From positions 258,447 through 322,446 of the forward strand of contig CAKVHE010000002.1 of NCBI GenBank assembly GCA_934747885.1: a stretch of DNA of 64,000 nucleotides, in the 5' to 3' direction. Origin of the DNA: an uncultured Clostridia bacterium (lineage in GTDB: Bacteria; Bacillota; Clostridia; Christensenellales; UBA1242). Of the stretch, positions 18,018 through 63,090 are shown piece by piece (within the stretch, counting starts at the first letter, position 1; the number at the start of each line of letters is the position of its first letter). A program made the position numbers and the translations under genes. The notes beneath the pieces were generated by a model. It had not been told where the DNA came from and ran no database searches. It saw only the letters and a list, made by a program, of their open reading frames with translations.

Positions 18018-18032
18018 TTAAATTAAGCAAAA

Positions 18033-18066
18033 AAATATTCCTGAAAGATGGAATATTTTTTTGTTT
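18033..18066 (+). terminator. Rho-independent terminator
   Basis: Stem aatattcc (18034-18041) / ggaatatt (18050-18057), followed by a T-run. Confidence 0.7.
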
Positions 18067-18126
18067 TTTCATTTTGAGATTGCAGGCTGAATATGATATA
18101 ATAAATAAAAAATCTTGGAGATAAAT

Positions 18127-19065: not shown

Positions 19066-19168
19066 CTAAAAAGTAGTTAAAAACGTTTGCTAAATGGCAA
19101 AAAAATATAGTAAAATATATTTGTTAGCCAAAAGGCTGATAATACTCGAATAAACATGAGGTAAAGGT

Positions 19169-19432
19169 ATGAAAATTTCAGACGTAAGAATTCGTTTGGT
19201 AAAGAGCGAAGCTAGCAAAATCAAAGCATCTGCATCTATCACAATTGATGACTGCTTTGTAGTTCATGACATCAAAATCATCGAAGGCAACGAAGGTTAC
19301 TTTATTGCTATGCCAAGCAGAAGAACTCCTGACGGCGAATTTAAAGACATCGTTCATCCATTAAACACTGAAACACGTGAAATGATTAAAGATGTTGTAT
19401 TGAAAGCTTTTGAAGAAAACAAAGCTGAATAG
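19169..19432 (+). CDS. spoVG: Septation/sporulation regulator SpoVG
   Basis: 87 aa. MKISDVRIRLVK...KASASITIDDCFVVHDIKIIEGNEGYFIAMPSRRTPDGEFKDIVHPLN is near-canonical SpoVG. Confidence 0.95.
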   Translation: MKISDVRIRLVKSEASKIKASASITIDDCFVVHDIKIIEGNEGYFIAMPSRRTPDGEFKDIVHPLNTETREMIKDVVLKAFEENKAE

Positions 19433-46169: not shown

Positions 46170-46217
46170 ATGTAACTAGACAAAATGAAAAAAGTGTGTA
46201 AAATAGGAGTAGTAGAT

Positions 46218-47180: not shown

Positions 47181-47181
47181 T

Positions 47182-47772
47182 ATGCAAAAAGTAAGTATAT
47201 TAAAAAATTTTAGAGTGAGGTTTAAAGTAAACGACAAATACAAATCGTTTCGCGAGTCAATTGCGAGCGTTTATTTGTTTTATGTTTCCTTGCTGGTGTA
47301 TTTATTTTTGCCAACCATAAGGTACACCAATTCGCTAGGGCTTAATTTAACAACACTTGTTGGTTTTAGCGACTATTGGTCAAATTTGGTAGTTTTAGTT
47401 TTGGCGGTTAGTTTTTTGGTACATCTAATTTATGCCATGATCTTTTCGTTTATCTCAAGTTCAACAATAAATAATCTTAGAGAGTTTTTGGATAAAAACC
47501 GTATTACCAAATATTTGTACTTTTGGTTTGGGGTTCGCAACTTTGTTGTCGGCGCGTTTAGAGTAATTGAATTTTTTGTGCCTACGCTGATAGTTTTTGA
47601 CTTTTTTGTAAATATAATATTGTCATTGGCAGCTGTGGCAATGTGCTTTTTTGATTTAAAAAAACATGTATATACTGACGTGTTTGCCGGCGTGCAGTTC
47701 GGCCCATTTATTTCGGGCTTTTATTGGTACTACACCATAGTGGTTGTTTTTGAGGTGGTGAGTTGCTTATGA
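47182..47772 (+). CDS. Polytopic membrane protein, function unknown
   Basis: 196 aa with 4-5 hydrophobic helices. It is the only CDS in the window ending in TGA. It overlaps the next gene by 4 nt (ATGA). Confidence 0.45.
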   Translation: MQKVSILKNFRVRFKVNDKYKSFRESIASVYLFYVSLLVYLFLPTIRYTNSLGLNLTTLVGFSDYWSNLVVLVLAVSFLVHLIYAMIFSFISSSTINNLREFLDKNRITKYLYFWFGVRNFVVGAFRVIEFFVPTLIVFDFFVNIILSLAAVAMCFFDLKKHVYTDVFAGVQFGPFISGFYWYYTIVVVFEVVSCL

Positions 47773-49316
47773 TGAAAAGGATATTAAGTATATGTGGCGC
47801 ACTTTTTTGCGCGCTACTTGCTTTGGTAAGTATAAACCCTAATAATTGCTGTAATGCAGCCAGTCGTGATGCGATAAGCAATGCAGATTTTGAAAACTAC
47901 TTGCAAGAGGTTTTTGTAATTAGTGGTGAAAAAAATTTGGCTGATAGACTTGCGGGAAGTGAAGGTGAGGAACAAACAGCAAACCGCATTGTTCAAATTC
48001 TGTTGCGCGACGCGAACAATTTTAAAGTTCTTTCGGGCGCGCCTTTGGCTTTTAGTGCAAGCTATGTTGACGGCGGAACTTTTGTTTCGCACAATGTAGT
48101 GGCTTTAAAAGACAATGCAGACACCGACAAAAAAGTCGTTTTGGTGGCTCCAATGGATAACTATTATGGTATGGCGGTTGGTGAGCAAAAAATAGAGGCA
48201 GAAGGGCTAAACCAAAGTTTGACAGCAATTGTGAGTCTGCTTGCAATTGCAAAAAACTTAAATAATACCAATTTACCGTTTGATTTTGAGATTGCTTTTT
48301 TAGGTGCAGAAAATTATGGTTCATTTGGTAGCGAAAACTATTTAAAAGGCAAAAGCGCAGAAGAATTAAAAAATATAATAAGTGTAATTTATTTGCATGA
48401 TCTATCCGGCGATGCAAACTTAAAATTTTTTGCCGGCGAAAAAACAACTAAAAGTGCAAAAAAGCTGTTTGAACTATTTAACGACGGCAGCACCGAAATC
48501 TTGAAAACGAATACCGAACTTGGGTTAGAAACTAGTACAAAAATTTCTTATTCGTCTTTGGGTATGGATACTTCATTTTGCAATTTTGCCGAAAAGAAAC
48601 TTGGTGTAATATCAATATTTGCAAACAACAAATATATTGACTTTGAAGAAATAAATGCAGACACCATTGCAGGGGCAAAAGAGCGATATGGTGAGGAATA
48701 TCTAAAAAATGCCACTGCAGTTACAAATAGTACTATAAATATGCTGACTAGTGAAAACTTTGCTAGTCTTGCAAGTGGCGTATACAAGTTTTCTAGTTTT
48801 AGGCTAAATCTGCGTTTGATTATGGCAATTATTTTGCTTGCAATAACGATAGCGCTTTATGTAATTTGTAAACATTATTCTTATGTTCTAGCGAAGAAAG
48901 AAAAAGAAAATTTTGATAAATTGGGCAAAGACGCGATATTTGATAGTTTTTATGACAGATATGACGTTTGCGAAGATCTTGGCAATTCGTATGATTTATT
49001 TAAGGATATTAAAGACGAAGACGACCGTATGTATATAATAAACAAAGTGCTTGAAGAAGAAATGAACCAAGCGCGCGAGCAAATGGAAAACGGTAAAAAT
49101 ATGAAAAACGTTGAGACTTGGGCTGATCTTGAAAAAATAAAAAAAGAATACTTTGACAAAATTCAAAAAGAGGTCAAAGACAAGGCAGAGGGCGCAGAAG
49201 AGATTTCTGCCATTCCCGAAGAGCAAAAGAAAACAGATGTTATAGAGTCCGCGCCAGATGCTAGTTCTGCAAAGAGCAATGGCGCAGAAGACAAGGCTAA
49301 AAATTTAAAAAAATAA
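47769..49316 (+). CDS. Secreted M28-peptidase-like domain protein with TM anchor and charged cytoplasmic tail (active site apparently degenerate)
   Basis: Signal peptide MMKRILSICGALFCALLALVS. LAGSEGEEQTANRIVQ, HNVVALK, VVLVAPMDN and FLGAENYGSFGSENYL follow the M28 aminopeptidase layout, but the usual HxD, DNASG and EE metal motifs are altered. TM helix LIMAIILLAITIALYVI, then a Lys/Glu/Asp-rich tail. Confidence 0.5.
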   Translation: MMKRILSICGALFCALLALVSINPNNCCNAASRDAISNADFENYLQEVFVISGEKNLADRLAGSEGEEQTANRIVQILLRDANNFKVLSGAPLAFSASYVDGGTFVSHNVVALKDNADTDKKVVLVAPMDNYYGMAVGEQKIEAEGLNQSLTAIVSLLAIAKNLNNTNLPFDFEIAFLGAENYGSFGSENYLKGKSAEELKNIISVIYLHDLSGDANLKFFAGEKTTKSAKKLFELFNDGSTEILKTNTELGLETSTKISYSSLGMDTSFCNFAEKKLGVISIFANNKYIDFEEINADTIAGAKERYGEEYLKNATAVTNSTINMLTSENFASLASGVYKFSSFRLNLRLIMAIILLAITIALYVICKHYSYVLAKKEKENFDKLGKDAIFDSFYDRYDVCEDLGNSYDLFKDIKDEDDRMYIINKVLEEEMNQAREQMENGKNMKNVETWADLEKIKKEYFDKIQKEVKDKAEGAEEISAIPEEQKKTDVIESAPDASSAKSNGAEDKAKNLKK

Positions 49317-49367
49317 ATGAAAGTCAACGCGACCATTTGCAGAAAAAATAAATTATCTTACAAAATA

Positions 49368-49400
49368 AAAAGCTCACAGAAATAATCTGTGAGTTTTTTA
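49368..49400 (+). terminator. Rho-independent terminator
   Basis: Stem ctcacaga (49373-49380) / tctgtgag (49387-49394), followed by a T6 run. Confidence 0.75.
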
Positions 49401-49413
49401 CTATCAAAATCTA

Positions 49414-49445
49414 ACAAAAAAGCCACAAACTAAATGTGGCTTAAA
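49414..49445 (-). terminator. Rho-independent terminator after rpsT
   Basis: Stem agccaca (49421-49427) / tgtggct (49435-49441). On the minus strand it is followed by a T-run (A6 at 49415-49420). Confidence 0.75.
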
Positions 49446-49446
49446 A

Positions 49447-49713
49447 TTACTTGTTTAAAGTATTTAATTCTTTGGCTAGGTTAGCTTTTTTTCTGTTTGC
49501 ACAGTTTTTATGAATGGCACCCTTAGAAGCAGTTTTATCAATAACGGCGCAGGTGGTAGGGTACAATTTTGTAGCTTCTTCCTTGTTGCCTTCTTGAACG
49601 GCTTTATCAAATTTTTTGATTTGAGTTTTCATAGCCGACTTTTCTGCTTTGTTGCGTGCATTGTTGCGTAAACCAATATCAATTCTTTTTTTCGATGATT
49701 TAATGTTTGCCAT
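49447..49713 (-). CDS. rpsT: 30S ribosomal protein S20
   Basis: 88 aa. MANIKSSKKRIDIGLRNNARNKAEKSAMKT is canonical S20. Confidence 0.95.
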   Translation of the reverse strand: MANIKSSKKRIDIGLRNNARNKAEKSAMKTQIKKFDKAVQEGNKEEATKLYPTTCAVIDKTASKGAIHKNCANRKKANLAKELNTLNK

Positions 49714-49828
49714 TGCTTCGCTCCTTATCGTTTGTCATAGAGAATTCTAACATATTTACGTTTGTTTTGCAAGTGTTTTGATAAAAATTTATGTTTATTT
49801 TTTATTAGATTTGCCAACAACTATATAT

Positions 49829-50674
49829 ATGAAAAACAATTACGCTATGCGCACCGATATGGCGGTGGAGTTTAAAACCAAAGCGCGTCAAAAGATTGCC
49901 GGTGCCAAATTTGTAACAAGAAAAATTGAGGGCCTTACCATAACTGAATGTGTGCTGGATAAAGCAAACGCGCTAGGTAGGCCAAGCGGACACTATATAA
50001 CGCTTGAATCGCCGTTGCCGGCGACAGATGAAAGCCCAAGGCTTTGCAACCAGATTATAAAAGTTTTAACGGAATATTTGCGGGCGTGTATGGCTACAAA
50101 AACCAATATTTTGGTAGTTGGTATTGGCAATGAAAATTTAGTCAGTGATTCGCTTGGTCCGCGCACGATAGAGCGCATAATGGTGTCTAGAAGCGAGGGT
50201 GGCAAATTGGCGACTGGTTATTCGAACGCGGCACCTATTGTGTCAAAATTGTGCCCTAGCGTGCTTGGAAACACTGGCATAGAAAGCTTTGACATTATAA
50301 AATCGGTAATTAAACAAATAAAGCCCGATGTGGTGGTTGCAATAGATAGTTTGTGTTCGCGCTCACTTGCGCGCCTTGGCACTTCTTTTCAAATTGCGAC
50401 ATCGGGTATTGTGCCGGGTTCGGGCGTGGGTAATCACCAAACCGAACTCTCTGCAAAAACTTTGGGTGTGCCGGTAATTGCAATTGGCGTGCCAATGATT
50501 GTTGGGCTTTATTGTCTAACTGATGGCGATGTGCCGCAAAATATGATAAAGTGCAAAAGCAAAATTGATGCCACGGCTACCGATTTTGTTGTGTCGCCAA
50601 AAGAACTAGATTTGGTTGTGGATGCGTCAGCAAAAATTTTGGCTGAGGCAATAAACCACGCAAATTTTGATTAA
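49829..50674 (+). CDS. gpr: Germination protease GPR-like endopeptidase (short form)
   Basis: MRTDMAVE N-terminal motif, VVGIGNENLVSDSLGP, VVAIDSL and QIATSGIVPGSGVGN follow the GPR spore-protease signature. Start uncertain (ATG 49829 or 49847), with no clear SD. The position after rpsT matches the Bacillus gene order. Confidence 0.7.
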   Translation: MKNNYAMRTDMAVEFKTKARQKIAGAKFVTRKIEGLTITECVLDKANALGRPSGHYITLESPLPATDESPRLCNQIIKVLTEYLRACMATKTNILVVGIGNENLVSDSLGPRTIERIMVSRSEGGKLATGYSNAAPIVSKLCPSVLGNTGIESFDIIKSVIKQIKPDVVVAIDSLCSRSLARLGTSFQIATSGIVPGSGVGNHQTELSAKTLGVPVIAIGVPMIVGLYCLTDGDVPQNMIKCKSKIDATATDFVVSPKELDLVVDASAKILAEAINHANFD

Positions 50675-50726: not shown

Positions 50727-53492
50727 TTATTTAACTCGCACTCTGCGACGAGTTTTTGTAACAATTACTGCAATTGAAACAACTGCGGTTACAATCAAAA
50801 CAATTAACACAATTAAGGCTGCGTTGGTTTTGTAATACTTTTCAATTTGTAATTCGTATACATTTCCATAGTTGTCGGTAAGTTGAATAGTGTACAAGCC
50901 GTTTTTAGAAAAACTGCGGTTGCCGCTAGATAGGGCGTCAAAGCTTGCAAGTTCGGCGGCGGTGTATTCTTTTAAAACATTGCCATTTAGCAAAACTACC
51001 AAAGATTTTAAGTTGTTACCAATAAGATTTGTTATAATAACATTGGTGGTAATGCGTCCGCCAGCTTCACCAGAATCTAGCGAAATGCCAAGGGTTTGTT
51101 TTTCAATTTCAATTGAATATTCTTTTTCGGCATAAGCGCTGCAAGTTTGCTTAACGCCGTTTGCCAAAAATTCTGCAGATTCGTTAAAGCCAACGGTAAG
51201 GACATACACGCCTTGGGTAAGTAGGTGATAAGAGTCGGCGTTAGGCAAGTCTTCGTACGCCACTGGCAATACGGAAGTTCTTAGCTTTAATGCAAACAAA
51301 CTTTGGTTGGCTTGTTTGTTAAAGGTAAAGCCTTGATACTTTTCGGTAAGCAAAGTAAATGCGTGTTTGGCGGCAATATTGGAGCCGTTTACAATTTCGA
51401 TGCGCCAACTGCCGATTGTGCTTAGGTAAACAGTTGTGCTTTCGGCGCCAGACAAAAACAAAACGTTGTTGCGGTAAATATTAAAGGTGTCGCCGGCACT
51501 CAATTGAATATTGGCATTAACGGCATATTTTGAATAATCATTTAATTTTAAAATTTCATTATCGTTTGAGGTTGTGACAATAATAGATGTGCCGTTTACG
51601 GTAAATTCATAAACTTGATAAAACTCTTTGTAGCTATCAAAACTGGTTAATATTTCGGTGGAAATATAACTAGCCATTTCGTAGTTTGGCAAGGTGTAAA
51701 TTTCAAGTTTGTAGTTGCCTGGTTTGGTAAAACTAATGTGGTCGCCTGCCAAAAAGTCATAAAAATTGATGTATTGGGTGCCGTTGTAGGTTAGGGTGGA
51801 ATTAACGGTAACATTATAACTTTTGCCGCTGCTAGATTGATAGTAGTCCGAAACGGTAAGCGTTTTTGAATTGGTATCAAAACTAAAGGTGTTGGATAAG
51901 GTAAATTTTACGCCGCTACTGTCGTAGTGTGAAGTGTCGGTATCAATATTATAGCAATAGGTATTAAAACGGAAGGCGTAAAAGGTATTAAAGTTAAATT
52001 CGGTATTGTTTACATAAACCAAAACATCACAATTAACCTTGTCAATAATATCTTTGTAATAGCCATGTAGTTGGGTTAATTCAGTTACGTTTCCGTTTTC
52101 TTTTACGGCCAAATTAACACCATCGCCGGTTGGCTTTAAAATACGGATAGTAGAAGTAACGGTGTTGGTAATGGTGGTGCTGTTTGTTAGCACGCCATTT
52201 AGGCAGTTGCGCAAATAGTTAATATTTTCACCATGCACACTGTAACTGTATTGGTTTAGATAAATTGCAAAGTCGTAAATATTATTAGAAGATACCGGAA
52301 CTTTGGTAATAACTTTAAAGGTTTGAAGTTGTGAGTAAGAATTTGTAAGTTCTAGGTCGCCCAGATTGCAGTTTAGTTCAAACACCGAGTGGTCAACTTC
52401 TGGGGTATAAAACCAAATAGATTTGGCGCCGTCACCATCGGTTAATATTTCAATATCTTTTAGCTCGGTATTTACTATTGCACCGGTATTTTGAGCGTTC
52501 ATATCTTTTTGTGTGATACTAAAAGCTAACAGGTCAAAAAATTTGTTTATATCCGCACTAGAAACCAACATATTTTGAGTAGTTTTTGTAGTGGTTTTGT
52601 CTATTGCGATATTAAGGCTGAGTGCCGAGTTAAACACATAATAATTTTCGGCACCATACGGATCAAATGAAAAGTTTGCTTTATTGATTTTGTTTGCACT
52701 GCTAAGAGCAGATTTGTAGTTTGCGTTGTAATAATTTATTACAAGGTTTGGCGTTAGTATATTAAAGGTTAAGGTTACGTCTTGCGTGCCGTTTTTTGAT
52801 TTAAAGGTGATGGAAGTTTTGCCAATGTAGCCCTTTGGAACAACCAAGGTGGTAGTTGCGCTGGCGTTAGGGGTAGCTTTTGCGGTAAAGACGGAGCCAG
52901 TTAAAACCAAATTGTACAAATTTTGTGCATAGGTTAAATCAAGTTCGCCATCTGCAAAAATATAATATTCACCTTTATAGATATAAACCGGTGAACTTTT
53001 TTCGCCTGAGTTTATACGAAGATTGGCAATATTGCTTTCCACTAGGCTTGGGACAAAGTCAAAAGACGATTGATGGTTGGAATAACTACCGTCCGGTTCA
53101 CGGATAGAATAGTTTACAATATATCTTGCTGGCGTGGTAAAGTAATAAGACGAAGTGTTTTCGGTGCTGCCAGAAAAATTGCAGTTTCTGCCTAGTTCGT
53201 CTTGTGTAAGTGTGTAAAGCGCGGTGCCGATTTCTTGTTTGATATTAAGGCTGGTTAATGCGGCGCCCTTTGGGTTGATTACTAAATAACTTACCATGTT
53301 GTCGGTGTTGTTTCCAAAAATTTCGGTTGAGGCAGAAATTGTGTTGGCTGTTTGTTGCATTTCGGTTTGGTTTGGCGAGGTGCTAAAATTGCTATTTTTG
53401 TTTTGCATTAGTTCAACGCCAAAGGAAAACATAAGGGCGACAATAGTTGCAATAATGCCAAATAGTGTTAACTTTTTAAAAAGTTTGTTCAT
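50727..53492 (-). CDS. Large surface protein, N-terminal signal/anchor and C-terminal TM anchor (candidate adhesin of the T4SS-like module)
   Basis: 921 aa. RBS aggagaaacc. N-terminal LTLFGIIATIVALMFSFGV. A ~850-aa Asn/Thr/Ser/Tyr-rich beta-type ectodomain. C-terminal ALIVLIVLIVTAVVSIAVIV followed by TKTRRRVRVK. No LPXTG motif. Confidence 0.6.
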   Translation of the reverse strand: MNKLFKKLTLFGIIATIVALMFSFGVELMQNKNSNFSTSPNQTEMQQTANTISASTEIFGNNTDNMVSYLVINPKGAALTSLNIKQEIGTALYTLTQDELGRNCNFSGSTENTSSYYFTTPARYIVNYSIREPDGSYSNHQSSFDFVPSLVESNIANLRINSGEKSSPVYIYKGEYYIFADGELDLTYAQNLYNLVLTGSVFTAKATPNASATTTLVVPKGYIGKTSITFKSKNGTQDVTLTFNILTPNLVINYYNANYKSALSSANKINKANFSFDPYGAENYYVFNSALSLNIAIDKTTTKTTQNMLVSSADINKFFDLLAFSITQKDMNAQNTGAIVNTELKDIEILTDGDGAKSIWFYTPEVDHSVFELNCNLGDLELTNSYSQLQTFKVITKVPVSSNNIYDFAIYLNQYSYSVHGENINYLRNCLNGVLTNSTTITNTVTSTIRILKPTGDGVNLAVKENGNVTELTQLHGYYKDIIDKVNCDVLVYVNNTEFNFNTFYAFRFNTYCYNIDTDTSHYDSSGVKFTLSNTFSFDTNSKTLTVSDYYQSSSGKSYNVTVNSTLTYNGTQYINFYDFLAGDHISFTKPGNYKLEIYTLPNYEMASYISTEILTSFDSYKEFYQVYEFTVNGTSIIVTTSNDNEILKLNDYSKYAVNANIQLSAGDTFNIYRNNVLFLSGAESTTVYLSTIGSWRIEIVNGSNIAAKHAFTLLTEKYQGFTFNKQANQSLFALKLRTSVLPVAYEDLPNADSYHLLTQGVYVLTVGFNESAEFLANGVKQTCSAYAEKEYSIEIEKQTLGISLDSGEAGGRITTNVIITNLIGNNLKSLVVLLNGNVLKEYTAAELASFDALSSGNRSFSKNGLYTIQLTDNYGNVYELQIEKYYKTNAALIVLIVLIVTAVVSIAVIVTKTRRRVRVK

Positions 53493-53534: not shown

Positions 53535-55514
53535 TTAGCCCAAAACTTTACGATTTCGTTCGCGAATATCATAAAATACTTGTTCTTCGTTAAGTCGGCG
53601 ACCAGGGATGTATGGCATATCCATTTGACCTATTTTATAAATGTCTGGAGCTTCAAAGTATGGGGTAATTTCGGAGTTTATTGGGCCTTTGCCAAAAACT
53701 TTTACAATTAGGTTGCCCATTTTTAATTTGTCTAGGTCGGAAGGGAACAGCAGTGGTCTGGTTTGCAAACTGGTGTTAGTGCTTGGCGAGGTTTTGCCGT
53801 CGCTAGTTTTGCTTTCGCCTTTACTTCCAACTTTTATAGTATAGTTGCCAAGTTCTTTACTAAAGGCTTCACGGGTTTCTTGCGATGGCGTACCAAGGAA
53901 GATACGCGTGTTGCAGTTGTCCATAACGATACTTGCGGTGTTTTTGCCGTAGCAATTTTCGAGTTGGGCATAAGATTGAATAATCATATTTAAGTAAATG
54001 CGGCGAGAACGAGCAACGGTAATTATTTTTTCTAGTTTGGATAGTGGCGGCATATTTGCAAACTCATCCAAAATAAAGAACATAGCGCGTTTTAATGCTG
54101 GCGGCTTAGATTTTGAAGCGTCCTTTGAAATAACTTCGTTTTGACGCGCTTTATGAACAAATTCCTTGTATGCCTGTGAAATACAAACGGTTGCAAGAGC
54201 ATAACGCGTTTCTTTTTCGTCGGGTATTTTCATAAAGAAAGCCGTAGGTCGTTCATCAAAACTTTGAAAGTCTAGTTCATTTTTGCTGGTAAGATAGCAA
54301 ATACCATTGTCGGCAAAAAGCGCCAATTTTTGGTTAAGGGTGGACATATAACTATCGCGAGTTTGTTTTGCGTTGGAATAAACGATATGCGAGCAAAGTT
54401 CAACTGTTTTAGATAGTGGGCTTCTGCCATTAAAATAGTCTTTTACGTATTCTAGGTCGTTTTCCTTGTTCATTGCAATTTTGTATAGGTTGTAAAAGTT
54501 GTAGCGGTCAACCGTCATGCCAAGGGCAGGGTTTTCGCTATCTTCTAGCATTGCAATCATAACGGCAACCATATAGTCGCGGGCACCTTGCTCCCAAGTT
54601 GCTTGTTTTGGATCGGTTATTGGGCAAAGAGCCGCCGCAATATCGTTTATGTCATCAAAACATTCGTCACGCAGTTTGGTTTTTTCTACTTCAACTTCGG
54701 TAAAGGCATCACGCAAAGACGAAAAGGCTTTGTTGTCAAATTCGTACCATTCTTTGCTGTTTATGTCACCAACTCTCACAAAACCATAAGCGTTTATGTC
54801 GTCATTGGTGTGCTTAAAAATTTCTTGTTCTAGGTTTAATTGTCGTTGATATTTGGTATAAATAGATTCAAGGGGGTTCCATCTAAGCGAGTTGTATGGG
54901 TTAATTAAGTCCAAAACTTTTACGTCGTAACCTTGTTCTTTTAAAAACTGGCTGTGATGTGCAAAAAGTTCACCTTTTGGGTCAGTAATAAACATGCTAG
55001 ATTTTGTTTTCATTTTGCCCAAAATTTGAATGGTAGGTTCTACAAACGCGGTAGATTTACCAACACCGGTGGTACCAACAATTAGTGCGTGATAACTAGG
55101 GGTGAAGTGTATTTTTATGTCGCCACGGCGATATACCGCTCTAAAAGGAATACCTTCGGTATAAAAGTCGCCAAGGTTGGACCAAAAGCAGTGTTTAAAC
55201 TTGGCATCTAGTTCTTTGCCTTCAATCCATTTTACATTTTCAAGGTCTTTTTCGCCTTTAAGACTGCTGCCGTCTTTTTTATCTGCGCCAGTAAACGAAA
55301 CCAAATACACAACAAATATGGTGCCGCCAACCAACAGGGCGTAGGTATAGGTGTCACCCATTGTTGCCGTTGATATAAATTCTTCAAAATGGAAACCGTC
55401 TGGTTTCATAAACAGGTAGGTAATTGTCATGCCCAAAATATAAGAAATCGCTGCAAAAATCAAACCCCAAAAAATAAATTTTTTCATTGTCGCTTTTAAG
55501 TCTGTTTTGGCCAT
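53535..55514 (-). CDS. Type IV coupling protein (VirD4/TraG family ATPase)
   Basis: Two N-terminal TM helices (FIFWGLIFAAISYILGMTITYLF, YTYALLVGGTIFVVYLVSF). Walker A VGTTGVGKST and Walker B-like MFFILDEFANM. The size of ~660 aa is typical of T4CPs. Start set at the ATG (55514) with 8-nt spacing to agggg, rather than GTG 55523. Confidence 0.8.
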   Translation of the reverse strand: MAKTDLKATMKKFIFWGLIFAAISYILGMTITYLFMKPDGFHFEEFISTATMGDTYTYALLVGGTIFVVYLVSFTGADKKDGSSLKGEKDLENVKWIEGKELDAKFKHCFWSNLGDFYTEGIPFRAVYRRGDIKIHFTPSYHALIVGTTGVGKSTAFVEPTIQILGKMKTKSSMFITDPKGELFAHHSQFLKEQGYDVKVLDLINPYNSLRWNPLESIYTKYQRQLNLEQEIFKHTNDDINAYGFVRVGDINSKEWYEFDNKAFSSLRDAFTEVEVEKTKLRDECFDDINDIAAALCPITDPKQATWEQGARDYMVAVMIAMLEDSENPALGMTVDRYNFYNLYKIAMNKENDLEYVKDYFNGRSPLSKTVELCSHIVYSNAKQTRDSYMSTLNQKLALFADNGICYLTSKNELDFQSFDERPTAFFMKIPDEKETRYALATVCISQAYKEFVHKARQNEVISKDASKSKPPALKRAMFFILDEFANMPPLSKLEKIITVARSRRIYLNMIIQSYAQLENCYGKNTASIVMDNCNTRIFLGTPSQETREAFSKELGNYTIKVGSKGESKTSDGKTSPSTNTSLQTRPLLFPSDLDKLKMGNLIVKVFGKGPINSEITPYFEAPDIYKIGQMDMPYIPGRRLNEEQVFYDIRERNRKVLG

Positions 55515-55547
55515 GGCATGCACCCCTATATATTATTAGATAAATAA

Positions 55548-55691: not shown

Positions 55692-56024
55692 ATGAAATTG
55701 TTATATAGACTCGCAAATTTGGGAAATATTTTACTAACAAACACTAGCGAAAGCGTAACCGATCCAAATTCAAACGCTGCCACCGACCCAATCTATGATT
55801 TTTTGGACATTTTTGGTCCGGTGCTTATGAGTTTGCTTTTGGCAGTGGGAATAATTTATTCCATTGTGCTTGGCGTGCAATACAGTAAGGCAGAATCGGG
55901 TGACGAGCGCGATACAGCCAAGAAAAAAATGACCAACGCCATAATTGGTTTTGCCACCATTTTGGTACTAATTGTTATTTTGTATGCACTAAGACGTCCG
56001 CTGGTTGCATGGCTGACTGAGTAA
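55692..56024 (+). CDS. Pilin-like two-TM small membrane protein (VirB2/TrbC-like architecture), paralog 1
   Basis: 110 aa with a strong RBS aggagag. Polar N-terminal segment, TM1 GPVLMSLLLAVGIIYSIVLGV, charged loop QYSKAESGDERDTAKKK, TM2 AIIGFATILVLIVILYAL. Confidence 0.55.
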   Translation: MKLLYRLANLGNILLTNTSESVTDPNSNAATDPIYDFLDIFGPVLMSLLLAVGIIYSIVLGVQYSKAESGDERDTAKKKMTNAIIGFATILVLIVILYALRRPLVAWLTE

Positions 56025-56124: not shown

Positions 56125-56457
56125 ATGAACTTTTTGCTAAGAATGGCAATGATGCTAACAACAACAACCGAAGATGCAACATCTGGCTTGAATGCTGCTG
56201 GACAAACACTTAAAAGTACTTTAAGTAAAGTGCTAAAAGTTGTATTGCCAATTATTTTCAGTGTCATTACAGCCGTTGGTGTTGTATACTGCGTAATTTT
56301 GGGCGTTAACTACGCCAAAGCAGAAAAGACTGAAACTCGTGAAGAAGCTAAAAAGCGTTTAATTGGTGCAATTGTTGGTTTTGGTATCGCAATTGTTGCT
56401 TCGCTTATTTTGTGGATCCTATTTGGAACAAGCATTTTCGATACTATTTTTGCTTAG
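56125..56457 (+). CDS. Pilin-like two-TM small membrane protein, paralog 2
   Basis: 110 aa with a strong RBS aggagg. The core AVGVVYCVILGVNYAKAEKTETREEAKKRLIGAIVGFGIAIVASLILWIL aligns without gaps to paralog 1, at roughly half identical residues by eye. Confidence 0.55.
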   Translation: MNFLLRMAMMLTTTTEDATSGLNAAGQTLKSTLSKVLKVVLPIIFSVITAVGVVYCVILGVNYAKAEKTETREEAKKRLIGAIVGFGIAIVASLILWILFGTSIFDTIFA

Positions 56458-56516: not shown

Positions 56517-56549
56517 ATAATCACCTCGTTTGGGGTGATTATTTTTTTG
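56517..56549 (+). terminator. Strong rho-independent terminator after the pilin-like genes
   Basis: 9-bp stem ataatcacc (56517-56525) / ggtgattat (56534-56542), followed by a T7 run. Confidence 0.8.
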
Positions 56550-56718: not shown

Positions 56719-59700
56719 ATGAACAAGTTACTTCAAATAATTTTTAGCCTAAATAGTTTGGTCGGTGCCAATGGGGCGGGGGCATCGTCTTCTAGCAATG
56801 CCGGTCAATCTTCGGGTGGAGATGGGCTTAGTACTTTTTTTGCCGGTTTACTTAATGTTCTTAGCAAAGTAGGCAAGTTTTTGTGGTCACTTTTGATTAA
56901 CCTTGCTTATGGTCTAGTAAAGTTTTGTTTAAATTTTGTAGACTTGTTGCAGTTTTTTGTTCAAAAACTGGTTGGTATAGATGCATTTACTAGAGAGGGC
57001 GGTTTTAAAAGCCTTTCTAGCTTAAAAGATACCGACATTATTGTTCGGTTTATTTTGCAAGATGGCGTGCTAAAAGTCTTTAAATCTATTGTAATAATTG
57101 CCATAATTTTAATCATCATATTTGCTATTCTTGCCATAGTGCGTTCCAACTACGAGGCTGCAATAGACGGTAGCGGAAAAGAAACAGGCAAGGGTACTTG
57201 GGATACCATTCGCAAATCGTTTAGGGCGCTGGTTATGATTGCCATTGTGCCAATTTTGCTTATTGCTGGTGTAATTGGCTCAAATGCCGTGCTAGCATCT
57301 ATTTGTAATGCCATAAAGGGCGACAATGATCTCACCATAGGTGGGCTAATTTTTAATGCCTCGGCATACAACGCAAACAAATACCGCGAATACGCAACCA
57401 CAGGGGTGCGTACGCCAATGCTGGTTTCTAGTGGTACTGAGGTGGTAAACCCTTCTTCTTATCGCACCAACAAAGATATGCAAGTTTTGTTTTACAAACT
57501 AGCAACCAACAAAATTTATATTCAATATGTTTCTGACGATCAAGATTTTATTGACAAACAGCGCACAAGCTATTTGTGGGCCGATTATATCACCGAAGAA
57601 GACGCTAGGCTAGACGAAGAAGAGGCAGCAATAAGTGATTATATGCGTCAATTTTTTAACGACTTTAAGGAGTTTTATCGCACCTATTGCCAAGATGGGT
57701 TGTTTAGTTCGTTGCCGCTGGACAAAATGAATATGGGCTCTAATATGATCACTAGCATTTACCGAACCAATTTCAAGCGCAACAAGCAATATCGTGATGC
57801 GCACTTTGATTTTGCAACCACTTACTATGCATCTGGCACCATAAATTGTGGCTCAAAAGATGATGGCAGTTCAATTTTTGCATCAATAATTGAAAATAGC
57901 AAAAACTATAGTGATTACGAAACCTTTGCAACCATTCCGCAAGAATATTATGTTATGGCGGATATGATGGACTATGCCATTGAGCATAACGTAAGATTTT
58001 ATATGGTAAATGCCAACAACAGTTCTATTTTGTGGAGCAACATAAAACTTACAAGCGACGAAGATGCCGAAGAGGTTAATATTGACGAATATGTCAAGGG
58101 CGATATTTATCAAAGCCCAAGTGGTAGGTATTATCAAAGTACCGGCACCGATTTTAAAAAGATAGCAAGCAATTATTTTTATGTTCAATACTATGATGGA
58201 ACAACTCGCGCATATTGGTCCAAGGATGGCGCAACCAGTGAAAACGAGGGCGCAACCTACATTATTTGTGTGCGTGGCGTGGGCGATCAAGAGGGTAAAT
58301 TTATTCCGGTAACTCAAAGCACCACCGACTTTCGATCAAACTTTTTGTCATCATCTTATAATGGTCCAATTGTGGCACGTGGCGTGTTTGCGGTTGACTT
58401 TTTCCCGGCTGACTACAATGAGCCAAGCGCTATTAGCGAACAAAAAGTGGATGAAGATGGCAACGAAATTATTACTAAAAATGTAGTTTCGCCATTCTCG
58501 GTGTCGGACACTCGCTCGCTTACCGAAAAAATAGACTCAACCGACTTGCGTCAAGCCACTGCAGTTGGCAAGGTTGTGTCGCTAGTTGGCAACTTTGTAA
58601 AAGATGTTGCTTCCTCTATTGGTGGCGCAATAAACAACAGTTTTATGCTTATTGGCGAAGAAGCGGACGGCAAATTGTATCAAAACTCAAACATAAAGTA
58701 TTTTGCCTACAATAAAAATGCTGCCGGTAGTGTTACATCTGTGGTGTTTTATGACGAAAGCGGAAGGAAAATAACCATTGGCGGACGTGACTCTACCAAC
58801 CGGTTAAATACCGAAATTACTGTAAAAAGTATAGAAACCGTTACCGATTATTTACTGCTTCAAAATAGTGTGTATGGCGCTTATGTAATTCCGTGGACGG
58901 CTTATGATGCCGGTGGTGGACTTATTAGCACCTTAATTGCAATGGAAAGTGCTTCTTTTTCGGACGATGCCAAACACTTGACAGTTGCGCAGTATTCTTA
59001 TGACAAAGTTACTTTTAAAGACGGCAACGGCAAGGATATAACTATGTTCCTAAATTGCCGCTTTAATGGTGTTGCAAGAGGCAATGCAAGTAATTTAACC
59101 AATAGCAGTAGTTACGTAAAATCTGGCGAATTTTATGTTTATGACCAAATTTCCTCTCAATTTTTGGGCATCGGTCGTGACGTGTATTTGCAACGCAAGG
59201 CAAACTTGGTTGTTACAGATACGGCAATTATGGAAACGAACGGCAATGTGCTTTTTGATATGGACAACATAGAAGGTTTGTATGACAACGTTGGTGTAAA
59301 GTATGTTAAAAAAGGTCTCAACTTTTTAAAGACAATTGTTGAACAAAATATAAGTATTGCTAGCTTTAACAATATTTATCGTAGCATAACTAAGACTGCT
59401 GTAAGTGGGGTTGAACTTATTCCGTCTGTTATGGCATCTGAAATGCGTGCAGGTCTGTCAGCAAAAGTAAGGGAGTTTGACCGCAGCTATTATAGCGTAG
59501 ATTATGCCGAAGAAATTGATGGCAAGCCATCAACTTCCGGAACCATAACCTTTAAAGATCGCAACAACAATGAGCTAGCGGAAACCTTTGAATTTACCAG
59601 CGTAGAAAAAGTAGAAAAAACCACAACGTTATATATCGGCGTGGCTATGCGCGGTTACAAAGTAGCGAGTGGCTATCGAGTCGATCCAAACAACGCAAGT

Positions 59701-62700
59701 TATGCCGTTTTAACAGATAGTCCGTCTTATACAAAATATGAAGATGATACTATTCCAAGAAATATTTTGGAATCTATCCAATCGGCTCTTGGCTACGTGG
59801 ACAACCGAACTGAAACCAATCGCTTGGTTTATACCTATCCATTAACAGTAAAATATTCTTATTCGGCGTACAAGTCTTCGGCGGGCAGGTCAATTATTTT
59901 GGGTGCGTCTATCAATGATGTGTCGATTGGTACACCAACCAGTAGTTTGAGTAGATATGTTGCACCAACCAACTTGCTAGAAATAAAAAATGGCAATGTT
60001 TATTGCCGTAGCCTAAACCAATATGTGGCAACGCGCGATAGTTTGAAAGAACTTATTGCACAAAGCACCACAAACAATGTTTATTTTAGCGGCACAAAAA
60101 ATGACGAAGATGCTGTTATCAACCCAGGCTTTGGCTTAAATTCTTCAGGAAGCGAAAGTGGGGTGAATGTTTCTTCGGCGTGGAACACAACTAGTGTTGC
60201 TGAATATGATGACTTTTACATTTACTTTTCTCGTGGCAAAATTTCGGGCGGGTTACTCTTTGACCTTGCTTTGCAAATACCAACTATTGATATTTTTGAC
60301 CTTTCAAAAATACGCTTAATATTCCGCTTTAAACTTGCATGGGTGCACCATTACACCGAAAACGTTTTGTATCGTTTGCAGGCTGGCGGGTATGTGCTAG
60401 ATTACAACTTTAGACCAGAAAGCGGTATTGGCATTGGATATTTGTTTACCTTGGGTAACATTGATCCGCTTGTTTTAGTGTTCTCAACCGCGCTAGTTAT
60501 AAACATCTTGCTTCGTATGGTTTGGGGCTTAATTGCTCGTATTTTTGAAATTGTAATTTTGTTCATTTTGTCACCGGGCTTTATTTCAACTATGCCGTTT
60601 GATGGTGGTGACAACTTTGGCAAGTGGCAAAAATCTATAATAGAAAAAGTTTTGGTAGCCTATGGCGATTTAATAACACTAAACTTATACTTTGTACTAG
60701 TTCCTTTGCTAAAAGACGTAACTACGGGACTAGTTAAGTACGAAGACTTACCAACAACAATAACCGGAGTTACAGCAATGATCAAAATGCCATTATCTAG
60801 TATTTTTGCAACCATAAAATCAGGTATAGCGGCAGGGCTTGCAAGCATCGGGTCGTTGTTTACCAAAATTGGTACTATTGGAGGCGGCAAACTTTGTGGT
60901 GCAATTGGTACAAATGTGCTTCTTGATGCCGCAACCGATTCGCAACTGGTTATTATTGAATATGTAAACCGACTAATTTACATTTTGTTCTTCTTGGTTT
61001 TAACAACCATGCTACAAACGATGCCTAGCGTAATAAGCAAAATTATTGGTGCAGAAGATACAGCAGCAAGCAAAGGTGATGCAACCAAGAAAAATGTTAA
61101 GGACAACGTAAACAAAGTTGCCGATTATACCTCAGGTAGAGCAATAAAGGCGGAAGTAAAAGATCTTGCAAACACGGCGGTAAGCTTTACGCCAAAATGG
61201 GCGATAGATGGTGCCAAGACACTTGCAGTAAAAGCCGCAGGTGCAATTGCTGGTGGCGTATCAAAGGTTGCTGGCAAGGCAGTAAATTCCAAGGCTGGAC
61301 AAGCGGTAGTAAAAGGCGTTAAGGCGGTTGGCGAAGGCGCCAAAAACTTTGCTCAACAAACCAAAGAAACCGTACAAGATGCCTTTAAAGGCATAAAGGG
61401 TCGAGAAAATAATACGGTGCCAAAATTTGATCCAAAAACTCAAACGGAAAAGCAAATTGAACACGAAATGGCTGATTATAACCCTGAAGATATTTTGGAT
61501 CAAACAACCGAAGAAGAATTGGACAAACGCGCAGAAGAAATTAACAAAATGCCGGATGACGTTGCAGAGTCGATGCAAGCCTTGCTTAACAACATTAGTG
61601 GGCGTATGGATCAGCTAAACAAAGATGTAGAAGACAAAATGAATAAATTCTACGAAGAGTTGGAACTTGCAAGTGATGTGTCGGCTGAAGAGCAAAAGAA
61701 ACTGGAAGAAAACCTAGAAAGTTTGCGCAGTCAGGTTTCGGACGAAGAACTAGACAATCAACTATCAACAAGCAAAACCGAACTAGAAAATGCACGCGCT
61801 AAATTGCAAAAAATTGAGGCCCTTTACCGTCAAGAAGGGGTAGAAGGCAAGTCCAAATACTATGTTCAAAACGAAAAAGGTGACTGGGTTGAATCCACAG
61901 CGGGAACTCCGGGTGCAAAACGTGTTGGTCAAATAAAGCAAGAACTTACTCAAACCTTTGAACAAGCGCGTGGCGAGTATCGTGCGGCCGAAGAGCAAAA
62001 ACAAGTCCGCGAAGAAATACAAAAGAACATAAATACCGAAATTGCAAAGCAAGAAAAGTATATGGAAGCAACTGGCAAATCGTTTGCCGAGGTTGATCCA
62101 GAACTTATTGCAGAGTTTGGCGATAGTGAACTGAAAAAACGCGTGAATGACGCTACCGTAGCAAAAGATTTAACCAACGAACTTTCAAAGGCAGTACACA
62201 CTCAAGACGGCACAAGCGTCTTAAACGAAGAAGAGCTTAAAAAGATGTTTGAGTCGGATAAGTTTAAGGATCTAATAAAGCAGTCGGGCGACATTACAAC
62301 TGACGAAGATTCCGCAAAACTAGAAAAGGCTCAAAAATACGCAGAAAATGTTGATAAGTATCAGGCCGAACTTGATGAAATTGCACGTAAAAAACAAGCA
62401 ACTAGTGAGTACAACGCCCTAAAAGATGCCTTAAAGGCCGCACAAATGAACAATGAGTACGACTTAAAAATTGCTGAGTTAGATCAACAATTAAAACAAA
62501 AATTTGAGGAACTAGCCAAAGAAACAGATGCGTCTGCAAAGATGGTGTTGGAAACTCAAATAAGCCAACTAAAACGCAGTATGTCAATGGCAAAAGAGTC
62601 CAAGTTTGAGGCGCAATTTGATGGCTACAAAAACAATATTGATGCGCGAAATGAAACACTAAGACGCAACCGCGCCGAATATAGCGACGCAAGACTAGAG

Positions 62701-63090
62701 CGAAATATTGACATAAGCAACAATCCAAAATTGCTTGAGCAATGCCATGATAGGCTGGTAGCGCGTGTTGCGGCTGAACGTGACAACCAAAGTATGCGTG
62801 ACGAAGCAATGGAACTTGCAAAACAAAATGGCGCAAAAACATCAACGGAAGAATACAACAATTTGCAAAGTCAAGTTCAAGCACTAGAAGATCAAATTGC
62901 TCGTGGAGGTTTGTCGGGAACTCAAAAGGCAGCAACCGAAGAGGAACTAACCGCAAAACTTTCTCAAGTTTCGGCAACCGAAAAATATATGGCGCTTGCT
63001 CGTGAAGCCCGTGAGGCTCAGGCGAGAATAAGCAAATTAACGGACTCAATCAATAAGGCCAACGAAAAAATTAACCACACCGGCGCCTAA
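56719..63090 (+). CDS. Giant (2123 aa) polytopic membrane protein; candidate VirB6/TrbL-like channel component with large ectodomain and long coiled-coil tail
   Basis: Uninterrupted ORF. Gly/Ser-rich N-terminus. Hydrophobic helices at aa ~54-74, 123-141 and 170-196. A ~1000-aa soluble region follows. A second TM cluster lies at aa ~1235-1440 (e.g. LVLVFSTALVINILLRMVWGLIARIFEIVILFILSPGF). Next is a Lys/Ala/Gly-rich stretch, then a ~550-aa Glu/Lys/Gln-rich heptad-like tail. Confidence 0.6.
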   Translation: MNKLLQIIFSLNSLVGANGAGASSSSNAGQSSGGDGLSTFFAGLLNVLSKVGKFLWSLLINLAYGLVKFCLNFVDLLQFFVQKLVGIDAFTREGGFKSLSSLKDTDIIVRFILQDGVLKVFKSIVIIAIILIIIFAILAIVRSNYEAAIDGSGKETGKGTWDTIRKSFRALVMIAIVPILLIAGVIGSNAVLASICNAIKGDNDLTIGGLIFNASAYNANKYREYATTGVRTPMLVSSGTEVVNPSSYRTNKDMQVLFYKLATNKIYIQYVSDDQDFIDKQRTSYLWADYITEEDARLDEEEAAISDYMRQFFNDFKEFYRTYCQDGLFSSLPLDKMNMGSNMITSIYRTNFKRNKQYRDAHFDFATTYYASGTINCGSKDDGSSIFASIIENSKNYSDYETFATIPQEYYVMADMMDYAIEHNVRFYMVNANNSSILWSNIKLTSDEDAEEVNIDEYVKGDIYQSPSGRYYQSTGTDFKKIASNYFYVQYYDGTTRAYWSKDGATSENEGATYIICVRGVGDQEGKFIPVTQSTTDFRSNFLSSSYNGPIVARGVFAVDFFPADYNEPSAISEQKVDEDGNEIITKNVVSPFSVSDTRSLTEKIDSTDLRQATAVGKVVSLVGNFVKDVASSIGGAINNSFMLIGEEADGKLYQNSNIKYFAYNKNAAGSVTSVVFYDESGRKITIGGRDSTNRLNTEITVKSIETVTDYLLLQNSVYGAYVIPWTAYDAGGGLISTLIAMESASFSDDAKHLTVAQYSYDKVTFKDGNGKDITMFLNCRFNGVARGNASNLTNSSSYVKSGEFYVYDQISSQFLGIGRDVYLQRKANLVVTDTAIMETNGNVLFDMDNIEGLYDNVGVKYVKKGLNFLKTIVEQNISIASFNNIYRSITKTAVSGVELIPSVMASEMRAGLSAKVREFDRSYYSVDYAEEIDGKPSTSGTITFKDRNNNELAETFEFTSVEKVEKTTTLYIGVAMRGYKVASGYRVDPNNASYAVLTDSPSYTKYEDDTIPRNILESIQSALGYVDNRTETNRLVYTYPLTVKYSYSAYKSSAGRSIILGASINDVSIGTPTSSLSRYVAPTNLLEIKNGNVYCRSLNQYVATRDSLKELIAQSTTNNVYFSGTKNDEDAVINPGFGLNSSGSESGVNVSSAWNTTSVAEYDDFYIYFSRGKISGGLLFDLALQIPTIDIFDLSKIRLIFRFKLAWVHHYTENVLYRLQAGGYVLDYNFRPESGIGIGYLFTLGNIDPLVLVFSTALVINILLRMVWGLIARIFEIVILFILSPGFISTMPFDGGDNFGKWQKSIIEKVLVAYGDLITLNLYFVLVPLLKDVTTGLVKYEDLPTTITGVTAMIKMPLSSIFATIKSGIAAGLASIGSLFTKIGTIGGGKLCGAIGTNVLLDAATDSQLVIIEYVNRLIYILFFLVLTTMLQTMPSVISKIIGAEDTAASKGDATKKNVKDNVNKVADYTSGRAIKAEVKDLANTAVSFTPKWAIDGAKTLAVKAAGAIAGGVSKVAGKAVNSKAGQAVVKGVKAVGEGAKNFAQQTKETVQDAFKGIKGRENNTVPKFDPKTQTEKQIEHEMADYNPEDILDQTTEEELDKRAEEINKMPDDVAESMQALLNNISGRMDQLNKDVEDKMNKFYEELELASDVSAEEQKKLEENLESLRSQVSDEELDNQLSTSKTELENARAKLQKIEALYRQEGVEGKSKYYVQNEKGDWVESTAGTPGAKRVGQIKQELTQTFEQARGEYRAAEEQKQVREEIQKNINTEIAKQEKYMEATGKSFAEVDPELIAEFGDSELKKRVNDATVAKDLTNELSKAVHTQDGTSVLNEEELKKMFESDKFKDLIKQSGDITTDEDSAKLEKAQKYAENVDKYQAELDEIARKKQATSEYNALKDALKAAQMNNEYDLKIAELDQQLKQKFEELAKETDASAKMVLETQISQLKRSMSMAKESKFEAQFDGYKNNIDARNETLRRNRAEYSDARLERNIDISNNPKLLEQCHDRLVARVAAERDNQSMRDEAMELAKQNGAKTSTEEYNNLQSQVQALEDQIARGGLSGTQKAATEEELTAKLSQVSATEKYMALAREAREAQARISKLTDSINKANEKINHTGA

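Follow-up and report, generated by a model that had tools for sequence, protein, structure and literature searches.

A giant VirB6-like protein with a putative ectodomain inserted in its core, from a type IV secretion locus of uncultured gut Clostridia

How type IV secretion systems (T4SSs) cross the Gram-positive wall was called an open question in a 2025 review (PMC12857230), and it is raised anew by a locus at one end of the DNA analysed here. This DNA, the window, is a stretch of 64,000 nucleotides from an uncultured Clostridia bacterium (contig CAKVHE010000002.1, positions 258,447 to 322,446), in which a gene adjoining those of T4SS ATPases encodes a very large polytopic protein, here named giant A. 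An initial annotation, made from the sequence alone, took the protein for a VirB6-like channel fused to a large ectodomain. What is giant A, and how did it reach its size? We consider it likely that it is the VirB6-position subunit of a monoderm T4SS, with a core of the MMCAP2_0566/Mbov_0396 type that is split by an insert of ~1,015 residues in an outward-facing loop and followed by a charged cytoplasmic tail of ~680 residues. Coordinates are collected in Table 1.

The open reading frame (ORF) starts with ATG and contains zero internal stops over the 6372 nucleotides first reported as uninterrupted. Its Kyte-Doolittle profile agrees in outline with the initial description, with three hydrophobic segments near the N-terminus (aa 58-77, 111-149 and 163-199, scoring 1.55, 3.6 and 2.66, the first being weak), a long hydrophilic region rich in S, T, Y, N and D (aa ~200-1235, from a hydropathy and composition scan) and a second hydrophobic cluster (aa 1237-1296, 1310-1331 and 1408-1440), where the string quoted earlier, LVLVFSTALVINILLRMVWGLIARIFEIVILFILSPGF, is found at aa 1251-1288. 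The four to five helices counted in this second cluster are better read as three membrane crossings, since its first two transmembrane (TM) helices ('TM4+TM5') form a single 41-residue helix in the AlphaFold model of a short homologue, P0046. The whole protein gave zero Pfam matches at E <= 0.01 and nothing useful in PHROGs, and as a sole query it had zero matches among PDB sequences.

Shorter relatives explain this layout. Scanning the GTDB species representatives with an alignment of VirB4, the ATPase encoded next to giant A, returned 215 related loci, and the best 80 of these 215 all belong to metagenome-assembled genomes (MAGs) of uncultured gut Clostridia (labels include Christensenella, Catabacter, Caccovivens and 'Clostridiales'). 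In loci where VirB4 is 44-49% identical, the protein encoded directly upstream of virB4 is often far shorter than giant A (424-500 aa in eight loci, 751-1,262 aa in seven), and its C-terminal hydrophobic module (C-module) follows the N-terminal one (N-module) almost directly: the TM3-TM4 loop measures ~30-70 aa in the short forms, as against the inserted residues of giant A. A profile of these short forms aligns to giant A in two colinear pieces, so that both halves of the core are present (profile positions 34-208 to Q 45-228, E = 1.6e-23, and positions 241-379 to Q 1243-1475, E = 9.3e-27, where Q is the numbering of the window protein, to which the homologue P0001 is 99% identical). On these alignments the two hydrophobic clusters are the halves of one domain and, because the halves are adjacent in the 424-500-aa homologues, giant A arose by expansion of the TM3-TM4 loop inside a single domain and not by the end-to-end fusion of a channel with an ectodomain, as had been proposed. 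The N-module carries, in the family alignment, the motifs LNxVDxLQxFxxKLxGI, GSNAVLASICNAI and ANKYRxYA.

The suggested comparison with the TM-protein families of Mycoplasma integrative and conjugative elements (ICEs) proved positive. Giant A matches NCBIfam NF045848 (MMCAP2_0566 family conjugal transfer protein) in two stretches, one of them at aa 1245-1448, with 92.4 bits and E = 3.2e-26, a narrow margin over the cutoff of 90 that is just missed by two further proteins of the locus, giant B (88.6 bits) and a third paralogue (72.5 bits). The 424-500-aa homologues match NF045848/NF045889 over their full length (E = 1e-44 to 1e-64); of six short homologues scanned, four pass NF045889 (Mbov_0396 family ICE element TM protein, an equivalog family) with 95.9-122 bits, and the short forms reach significant scores, below the cutoff, against NF045890 (pLS20_p028 family, E = 2e-16). 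A precomputed Pfam label, PF26635.1, is attached to P0046 and many short forms and was not reported by local Pfam for the same sequence.

A first homology search with giant A returned 27 unnamed proteins of 1.4-3.6 kaa without Pfam domain, in all 27 of which three N-terminal helices are separated by an insert of ~450-1,850 aa from a second cluster of helices. Conservation across the whole set is limited to the N-module (Q 1-245), the C-module (Q ~1200-1520) and, between them, a short motif at Q 391-445; P0017-P0026 are giant B orthologues and P0027 is of the third type. The layout of N-module, insert and C-module is common to 93 representative proteins (50% clustering), and the length survey that had been advised gave, across loci, a series of 424-500, 751-1,262 and 1,789-2,854 aa. 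At 90% identity giant A clusters with close copies from ENA, NCBI, Logan and MGnify assemblies (13 members, contigs <=880 kb), of which 10/13 are exactly 2,123 aa long. The early worry that the long ORF is an assembly or annotation artefact joining several genes can hence be dismissed with near certainty, because full-length copies recur in independent assemblies (ten of them of equal length), and also in view of the 93 same-layout representatives and of TM clusters that are the halves of one domain, contiguous in the short homologues.

The Gly/Ser-rich segment at aa 1-44 (window 56719-56850) bears the motif (L/M)G(A/V)NG(A/P)G, which most giant A orthologues share and the short forms lack. 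A Gly-rich stretch between TM6 and TM7 (window 60736-60933, aa ~1340-1405) occurs only in the closest subfamily and has no counterpart in the short forms, in giant B or in the third paralogue; it looks like a second, smaller expansion of an outward-facing loop.

On which side of the membrane the insert lies was judged from charge. The TM2-TM3 loop is the only net-basic loop across the family (net charge +2.1), the TM3-TM4 loop of the short forms has 5 K/R vs 14 D/E, the region after their last TM helix has 22 K/R vs 9 D/E, and the insert of giant A is acidic and beta-rich (composition and AlphaFold model). A topology with the N-terminus in, six crossings and the C-terminus in is moderately supported, in which the insert would occupy the second outward-facing loop and the tail would be cytoplasmic; the charge bias thereby places the central region outside, as the initial annotation had supposed. 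Two points weigh against this arrangement, namely its basis in the positive-inside rule and a monomer model, and the location of most R388 VirB6 helices outside the membrane (PMC12857230), because of which counts of 'TM' helices may mislead. An inverted topology, with the ~1,015-aa region in the cytoplasm, for instance as a substrate-docking or regulatory domain, and the tail outside, gains something from the weak hydrophobicity of helix 1 (1.55), which makes the number of crossings before the insert uncertain. We nevertheless regard inversion as very improbable, given the sole net-basic loop at TM2-TM3, the strongly acidic character of the loop equivalent to the insert and the basic C-terminal region in the short forms, and an insert whose composition (beta-rich, acidic, rich in S, T, N and Y) is typical of exported domains.

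Is this core, split and turned in this way, that of a VirB6 protein? Giant A shows features of the VirB6 class, being polytopic with ~5 or more hydrophobic helices and encoded next to T4SS ATPases, and no other VirB6 candidate is encoded in the eight-gene locus. Its gene stands in the order Mbov_0395-like pilin, Mbov_0396-like protein, Mbov_0397-like VirB4. On a plasmid of Spiroplasma, where UGA is read as Trp, an Mbov_0396 protein is likewise encoded directly upstream of an Mbov_0397 VirB4-type ATPase, which is the CDS16-CDS17 arrangement of Mycoplasma ICEs. CDS16 is needed for ICEA transfer (PMC6030558) and has been called the likely VirB6-like component of Mycoplasma ICEs (PMC12857230). A second relative, pLS20_p028, is a 974-aa gene downstream of virD4 and corresponds to pLS20 gene 49, the 'putative extended-VirB6' of Bacillus conjugative plasmids (PMC8557374).

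The short form P0046, modelled with AlphaFold from an alignment of 70 rows that included the modules of the window protein, gave a confident, all-helical model (pLDDT 82.8, pTM 0.62) with unusually long helices of 29-59 residues. Searched with Foldseek against 350,542 PDB chains, its top six matches were all TrwI/VirB6 of the R388 stalk (probability 0.69-0.99, target TM-score 0.32-0.46, E 0.1-0.7), with more TrwI chains lower in the list and Legionella DotA at rank 17. Among Pfam families, TrbL_4 (PF19597) was the only one matched repeatedly, by 16/70 family members at E <= 0.05 (best E = 1.4e-4).

Several results count against the assignment. The Foldseek E-values are weak and the TM-scores moderate, the query TM-score is 0.28 and a short homologue was modelled in place of giant A; since the E-values are weak, it is the specificity of the matches that carries the fold argument. 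All TrbL_4 matches of the family fall below the gathering score (19.7 bits vs 27 for the short form), and giant A matches neither TrbL/VirB6 (PF04610) nor TrbL_4 at gathering score, so that the TrbL/VirB6 profile check recommended at the outset came back without a match above that score. Among PDB sequences the family profile found noise only and failed to recover TrwI. With hhalign, the core profile was aligned to single sequences: pCF10 PrgH (MPF_FATA) gave a probability of 0.1%, a single-sequence template having low power, Tn916 Orf15 (ConG-type, MPF_FA) gave E = 0.031 and a probability of 1.6% with only a short P..S.iP..DG motif aligned, and pLS20 gene 49 gave a probability of 31%, a weakly positive result at E = 5e-4 over 121 columns. 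Finally, giant A misses the cutoff of 70 of NF045889 with 64.0 bits (E = 1.6e-17), which makes it related to that family on sequence grounds and not an equivalog.

These negative results leave room for another interpretation, that the family is a distinct, lineage-specific polytopic scaffold of Mollicutes/Clostridia-type T4SSs and not a VirB6 equivalent, its TrwI likeness being that of generic long-helix bundles. Such a protein could act more like EsaA/YueB, a polytopic subunit of the type VIIb secretion system (T7SSb) whose long extracellular domain between TM helices is thought to pass through the Gram-positive wall. The likeness of giant A to EsaA/YueB, as a polytopic secretion protein with a very large extracellular domain between TM helices, is by analogy only, system and family being unrelated; no similarity between the two was found, none having been looked for. 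A scaffold of this kind is favoured by the sub-threshold character of every sequence link to TrbL/VirB6, by the lack of an hhalign match to PrgH or Tn916 Orf15 and by the Foldseek values (E ~0.1, query TM-score 0.28), but it seems unlikely to us: that the six best of all PDB chains searched should be VirB6, with the VirB6-class DotA in addition, is not expected of a generic bundle, the locus offers no other candidate, and a VirB6 role agrees with the neighbouring virB4 and with the dependence of transfer on CDS16 (PMC6030558).

We therefore retain, with moderate support, the reading that giant A works as VirB6, because of its gene position, the lack of another candidate in the locus, the fold matches and the literature designation of CDS16 and pLS20 gene 49. 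The VirB6-like identity first proposed thus gains from the NF045848 match, the virB4 adjacency and the TrwI fold matches, whereas the direct Pfam link to TrbL/VirB6 stays sub-threshold and formal membership of the TrbL/VirB6 family is not demonstrated. Provided that the VirB6 equivalence holds, a central domain of ~1,015 aa and a C-proximal one of ~680 aa place giant A in the 'extended VirB6' subtype (PMC12857230).

Conservation changes along the protein. Compared region by region with its orthologues, giant A is 36-52% identical in the TM modules, 41-47% at aa 229-600, 40-50% at aa 1195-1242, 23-32% at aa 601-1194 and 14-21% in the tail, VirB4 being 52-72% identical between the same loci. Judging by the difference between aa 229-600 and aa 601-1194, the insert has a conserved membrane-proximal base and a variable distal tip (aa ~601-1194). 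It contains no internal repeats. An exhaustive search of 1.84 billion representative proteins with a profile of the insert gave 111 matches, 93 with both TM modules and the others fragments, and since this accounts for all of them, the insert occurs, as far as such profiles reach, only inside the giant family. These 93 proteins have medians of 2,330 aa for total length (maximum 4,833), ~900 aa for the insert and ~890 aa for the tail (maximum 3,388). A crude heptad signal in the tail, a region that the initial annotation did not take up, is significant only at aa ~1500-1700, and a coiled coil over the whole tail was accordingly rejected.

The insert has no Pfam, NCBIfam or PDB-sequence match. 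Its AlphaFold (AF2) model, built from a 13-row alignment, is poor (pLDDT 54.5) and beta-rich, with model residues ~200-330, ~700-770 and ~810-890 reaching 70-83, and Foldseek of this poor model against the PDB returned generic beta-sandwich noise (TM-score <= 0.15). No fold is assigned to the ectodomain because its model is poor, which weighs against the interpretation proposed here. The initial suggestion that the ectodomain takes over missing VirB8-, VirB1- or adhesin-like functions gains no support from these searches, which with so poor a model do not refute it, and no likeness to VirB1/CHAP/lysozyme or VirB8/NTF2 is claimed.

By analogy with R388 TrwI/VirB6, the core of giant A may oligomerise above the VirB4 ATPase, the product of the next gene, and its ring would serve as membrane translocon and as platform for the assembly of two VirB2-like pilins. 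From this ring the inserted domains would extend into the cell wall and across it. Their conserved parts near the membrane would surround the emerging pilus or substrate as a collar or conduit, and their fast-evolving distal parts, exposed at the surface, would serve for contact or recognition. Giant B and the third paralogue would probably add layers or form a hetero-oligomer, and the three together could stand in for the wall-spanning parts (VirB8, VirB1, VirB5, outer core) that are not visibly encoded in the locus. Support for the oligomeric state and for this role of the ectodomain is weak and comes from the analogy.

The variable tip can also be read differently. With the core still a VirB6, the insert may be mainly a surface adhesin, a target-recognition device or an entry-exclusion determinant and not a wall-spanning conduit, comparable in action to the TraG C-terminal domain of F/SXT or to the VirB6 extensions that Rickettsiales expose at the surface. 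The distal ectodomain is indeed far less conserved than VirB4 between the same loci (23-32% vs 52-72%), the three paralogues bear different inserts, surface exposure was reported for the C-termini of the extended VirB6 proteins of Anaplasma, and mating-pair stabilisation as well as entry exclusion involve the C-terminal domain of TraG (PMC7648143). On the other hand, no adhesin, lectin or Ig-like family was detected in giant A, including with Foldseek on the pLDDT 54.5 model, and the third of the insert nearest the membrane matches the TM core in conservation, a pattern more in keeping with a structural role. An adhesin-like role is therefore a possibility to be entertained, one that we would not bet on and that is compatible with the reading preferred here.

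Known systems resemble the giant A locus in part. The CDS16 proteins of Mycoplasma/Spiroplasma ICEs belong to the same family (Mbov_0396/MMCAP2_0566) and are, like giant A, encoded between an Mbov_0395-family pilin-like gene and an Mbov_0397-type VirB4, whereas members from Mollicutes have a few hundred residues (545 aa in Spiroplasma pSHM_1) without such an insert and tail, and are carried on mobile elements of wall-less cells, giant A being triplicated and chromosomally fixed in a walled spore-former. The product of pLS20 gene 49 has a homologous C-module, is also enlarged (974 aa) and its gene adjoins virD4 and virB4; in contrast to giant A, its TM helices are all N-terminal and its extension C-terminal (PMC8557374), it lacks a central insert, and it is plasmid-borne together with a relaxase. 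R388 TrwI/VirB6 (PDB 7o3v, 8rt9, 8rtd), the pentameric platform of the VirB2 pilus (PMC12857230), provides the best structural matches to the family core model and is a polytopic helical protein adjoining T4SS ATPases, with VirB2-like genes also present at the giant A locus; however, it has ~270 aa, works in a diderm with VirB5/7/8/9/10 and has no detectable sequence similarity to the giant A family.

Rickettsiales (Anaplasma/Ehrlichia VirB6-1 to -4, Rickettsia RvhB6) similarly have several tandem, very large paralogues per system, with hydrophilic extensions that are perhaps surface-exposed (PMC7648143), in a T4SS that is chromosomal and not conjugative. Their extensions lie N- or C-terminal to the TrbL/VirB6 domain and are often repetitive, whereas the main one of giant A is in a loop and non-repetitive; their hosts are diderm, and their domain is recognisable by Pfam TrbL. 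The exceptional size first claimed for giant A stands against Gram-positive analogues of VirB6, of ~300 or 700-900 aa (PMC12857230), and does not stand against Rickettsiales, where extended VirB6 proteins reach 4,322 and 9,935 aa (PMC7648143). The T4SS of Patescibacteria (Saccharibacteria) is likewise monoderm and chromosomal, without relaxase and with PF18895 pilin genes (PMC12102498, PMC12857230), but six pilins and counterparts of VirB1, VirB3, VirB6 and VirB8 are recognisable in it, giant VirB6 paralogues with an expanded loop are not among its reported parts, and its hosts are ultrasmall epibionts and not spore-forming Clostridia.

Table 1. Positions in the window of giant A, its predicted parts and the neighbouring T4SS genes.
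Feature	Position	Strand	Remarks
Giant A, extended VirB6-like polytopic T4SS protein	56719..63090	+	2,123-aa ORF; NF045848; family of same-layout giants
N-module of core, aa 45-228	56851..57402	+	helix 1, TM2, basic loop (predicted cytoplasmic), TM3; from short-form profile and family alignment
Inserted ectodomain (putative), aa 229-1242	57403..60444	+	~1,015 aa; beta-rich; absent from 424-500-aa homologues
C-module of core, aa 1243-1445	60445..61053	+	long helix TM4/5, conserved P-x-D-x-G...F..W loop, TM6, Gly-rich loop, TM7
C-terminal tail, aa ~1446-2123	61054..63087	+	~680 aa; E/K/A/Q-rich, Pro/Gly-poor; predicted cytoplasmic
921-aa protein	50727..53492	-	N- and C-terminal hydrophobic anchors (aa ~17, ~902); first gene of island; no Pfam/NCBIfam match
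VirD4-type coupling protein	53535..55523	-	662 aa; PF02534 E = 1.7e-52, PF12696, PF10412; divergently transcribed
VirB2-like pilin gene 1	55692..56024	+	110 aa; PF18895 T4SS_pilin E = 1.5e-5, just below cutoff
VirB2-like pilin gene 2	56125..56457	+	110 aa; PF18895 32.8 bits, cutoff 26.6
virB4, 5' part	63165..64000	+	runs off window; 921 aa in 99%-identical contig L001

The first 50 kb of the window hold genes for housekeeping functions of a spore-forming Firmicute, namely valS, comEC, holA and gpr (germination protease), and the T4SS genes begin at ~50.7 kb, in the order 921-aa protein (-), virD4 (-), two pilin genes (+), giant A (+) and virB4 (+). Pilin-like gene, TM protein and VirB4-type ATPase thus follow one another as in the Mbov_0395/0396/0397 triad, the core of Mollicutes-ICE-type T4SSs. 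VirD4 matches the NCBIfam CD1115 family with 292 bits (cutoff 250). Pilin 1 has two hydrophobic helices with a K-rich loop between them and scores 35.1 bits against the NCBIfam Mbov_0395 pilin-like family, under the cutoff of 40, which pilin 2 passes with 44.4 bits (NF045849, Mbov_0395 pilin-like conjugal transfer protein). A hairpin (AATCACC / GGTGATT) with a T-run behind it lies between pilin 2 and giant A (window ~56519-56549), an arrangement that would be compatible with attenuation downstream of the pilin genes; it was spotted by eye and not called by a consensus terminator scan.

The 921-aa protein is a candidate for a missing wall-associated T4SS part. It has positional counterparts of 608-989 aa in L002, L005, L087, L088 and L089, and is kept beside virD4 in all loci while diverging very fast (25% identity between L001 and L002).

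Contig L001 continues after giant A with virB4 (921 aa), giant B (2,115 aa) and a third ORF (866 aa). Its virB4 (16447-19212) carries PF19044/PF01935 and scores 580.8 bits against the NCBIfam Mbov_0397 family, just under the cutoff of 590. Two hydrophobic helices are present at the VirB4 N-terminus (aa ~33, ~55) and no separate VirB3-like gene is visible in the locus, because of which a VirB3 part may be fused to VirB4. Giant A, giant B and the third protein share both modules in BLAST comparisons (E = 2e-21 to 8e-31), which makes giant A, by sequence, one of three paralogues per locus; all three are present in loci whose VirB4 is at least 53% identical, the third measuring ~870-1,400 aa across loci.

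More distant loci differ. In three of them, with VirB4 ~45% identical (L035 12803-22663, L043 12782-22660, L075 12681-22727), the ~10 kb upstream of virB4 gave no detectable VirB6-like gene, and virB4 is followed by an ORF of >3,287 aa that has only an N-terminal anchor and extends past the end of the locus, a giant partner of another kind. Two MAGs carry two related virB4 loci each, L028 and L031 in DVOJ01 and L046 and L069 in CAJJUK01; in each pair a short VirB6-like gene accompanies one locus and none is detectable at the other, and for that reason some genomes may carry two T4SSs of the giant A type.

The locus does not look like a conjugative element. Among its eight genes, no recognisable relaxase, integrase, VirB1-type hydrolase or VirB8 was found, and no relaxase or integrase was called in 8 loci, although a relaxase may be encoded elsewhere in the genome. 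The upstream flank is comEC-holA-...-rpsT-(gpr or Asp/Glu racemase) in six lineages (window 44655-50674, L002, L005 and L087-L089), where the giant A proteins are only 28-38% identical, and fba and/or gap lie downstream in seven loci (L004, L008, L017, L018, L020, L021 and L024). Because the same housekeeping flanks recur across divergent lineages, no relaxase or integrase is called at the locus and its GC content is not deviant, it is probably, on this genomic evidence, an old, vertically inherited T4SS and not a mobile element; recent horizontal acquisition was rejected in view of the conserved flanks and the unremarkable GC content. The T4SS locus behaves as a feature of the core genome.

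No published description of the giant A family or of its locus was found in the literature. Extended VirB6 is an established category, and the role of such domains in T4SS structure and function was stated to be unknown in the 2025 review, according to which, moreover, Gram-positive T4SSs other than those of Patescibacteria lack VirB2 pilins (PMC12857230). What differs from known extended VirB6 proteins is a main extension inside a loop of the core and not at an end, a monoderm host and a triplicated gene, together with VirB2-like pilins in a spore-forming Clostridium-type genome and a chromosomally fixed locus without visible relaxase.

We put forward, as a tentative idea, that the locus encodes a core-genome, non-conjugative, pilus-forming T4SS of spore-forming gut Clostridia in which three giant VirB6 paralogues make up a hetero-oligomeric, wall-spanning channel. 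If true, such a channel would be a new architectural solution for crossing the Gram-positive envelope, and these Clostridia would be the second monoderm lineage, after Patescibacteria, to use VirB2-type pilins for something other than plasmid transfer. The T4SS is widespread in uncultured gut Clostridia and apparently vertically inherited, at least 215 species representatives having a related virB4. Pilins, VirB4 and VirD4 are kept in this system, in which VirB1, VirB8 and a relaxase are not seen; within it, one extracellular loop of a VirB6-like core appears to have been expanded stepwise, in a natural series of 424-500, 750-1,260 and 1,800-4,800 aa, and the gene to have been triplicated. Because this series of sizes exists within one such system, the role of the extension can be tested by comparison.

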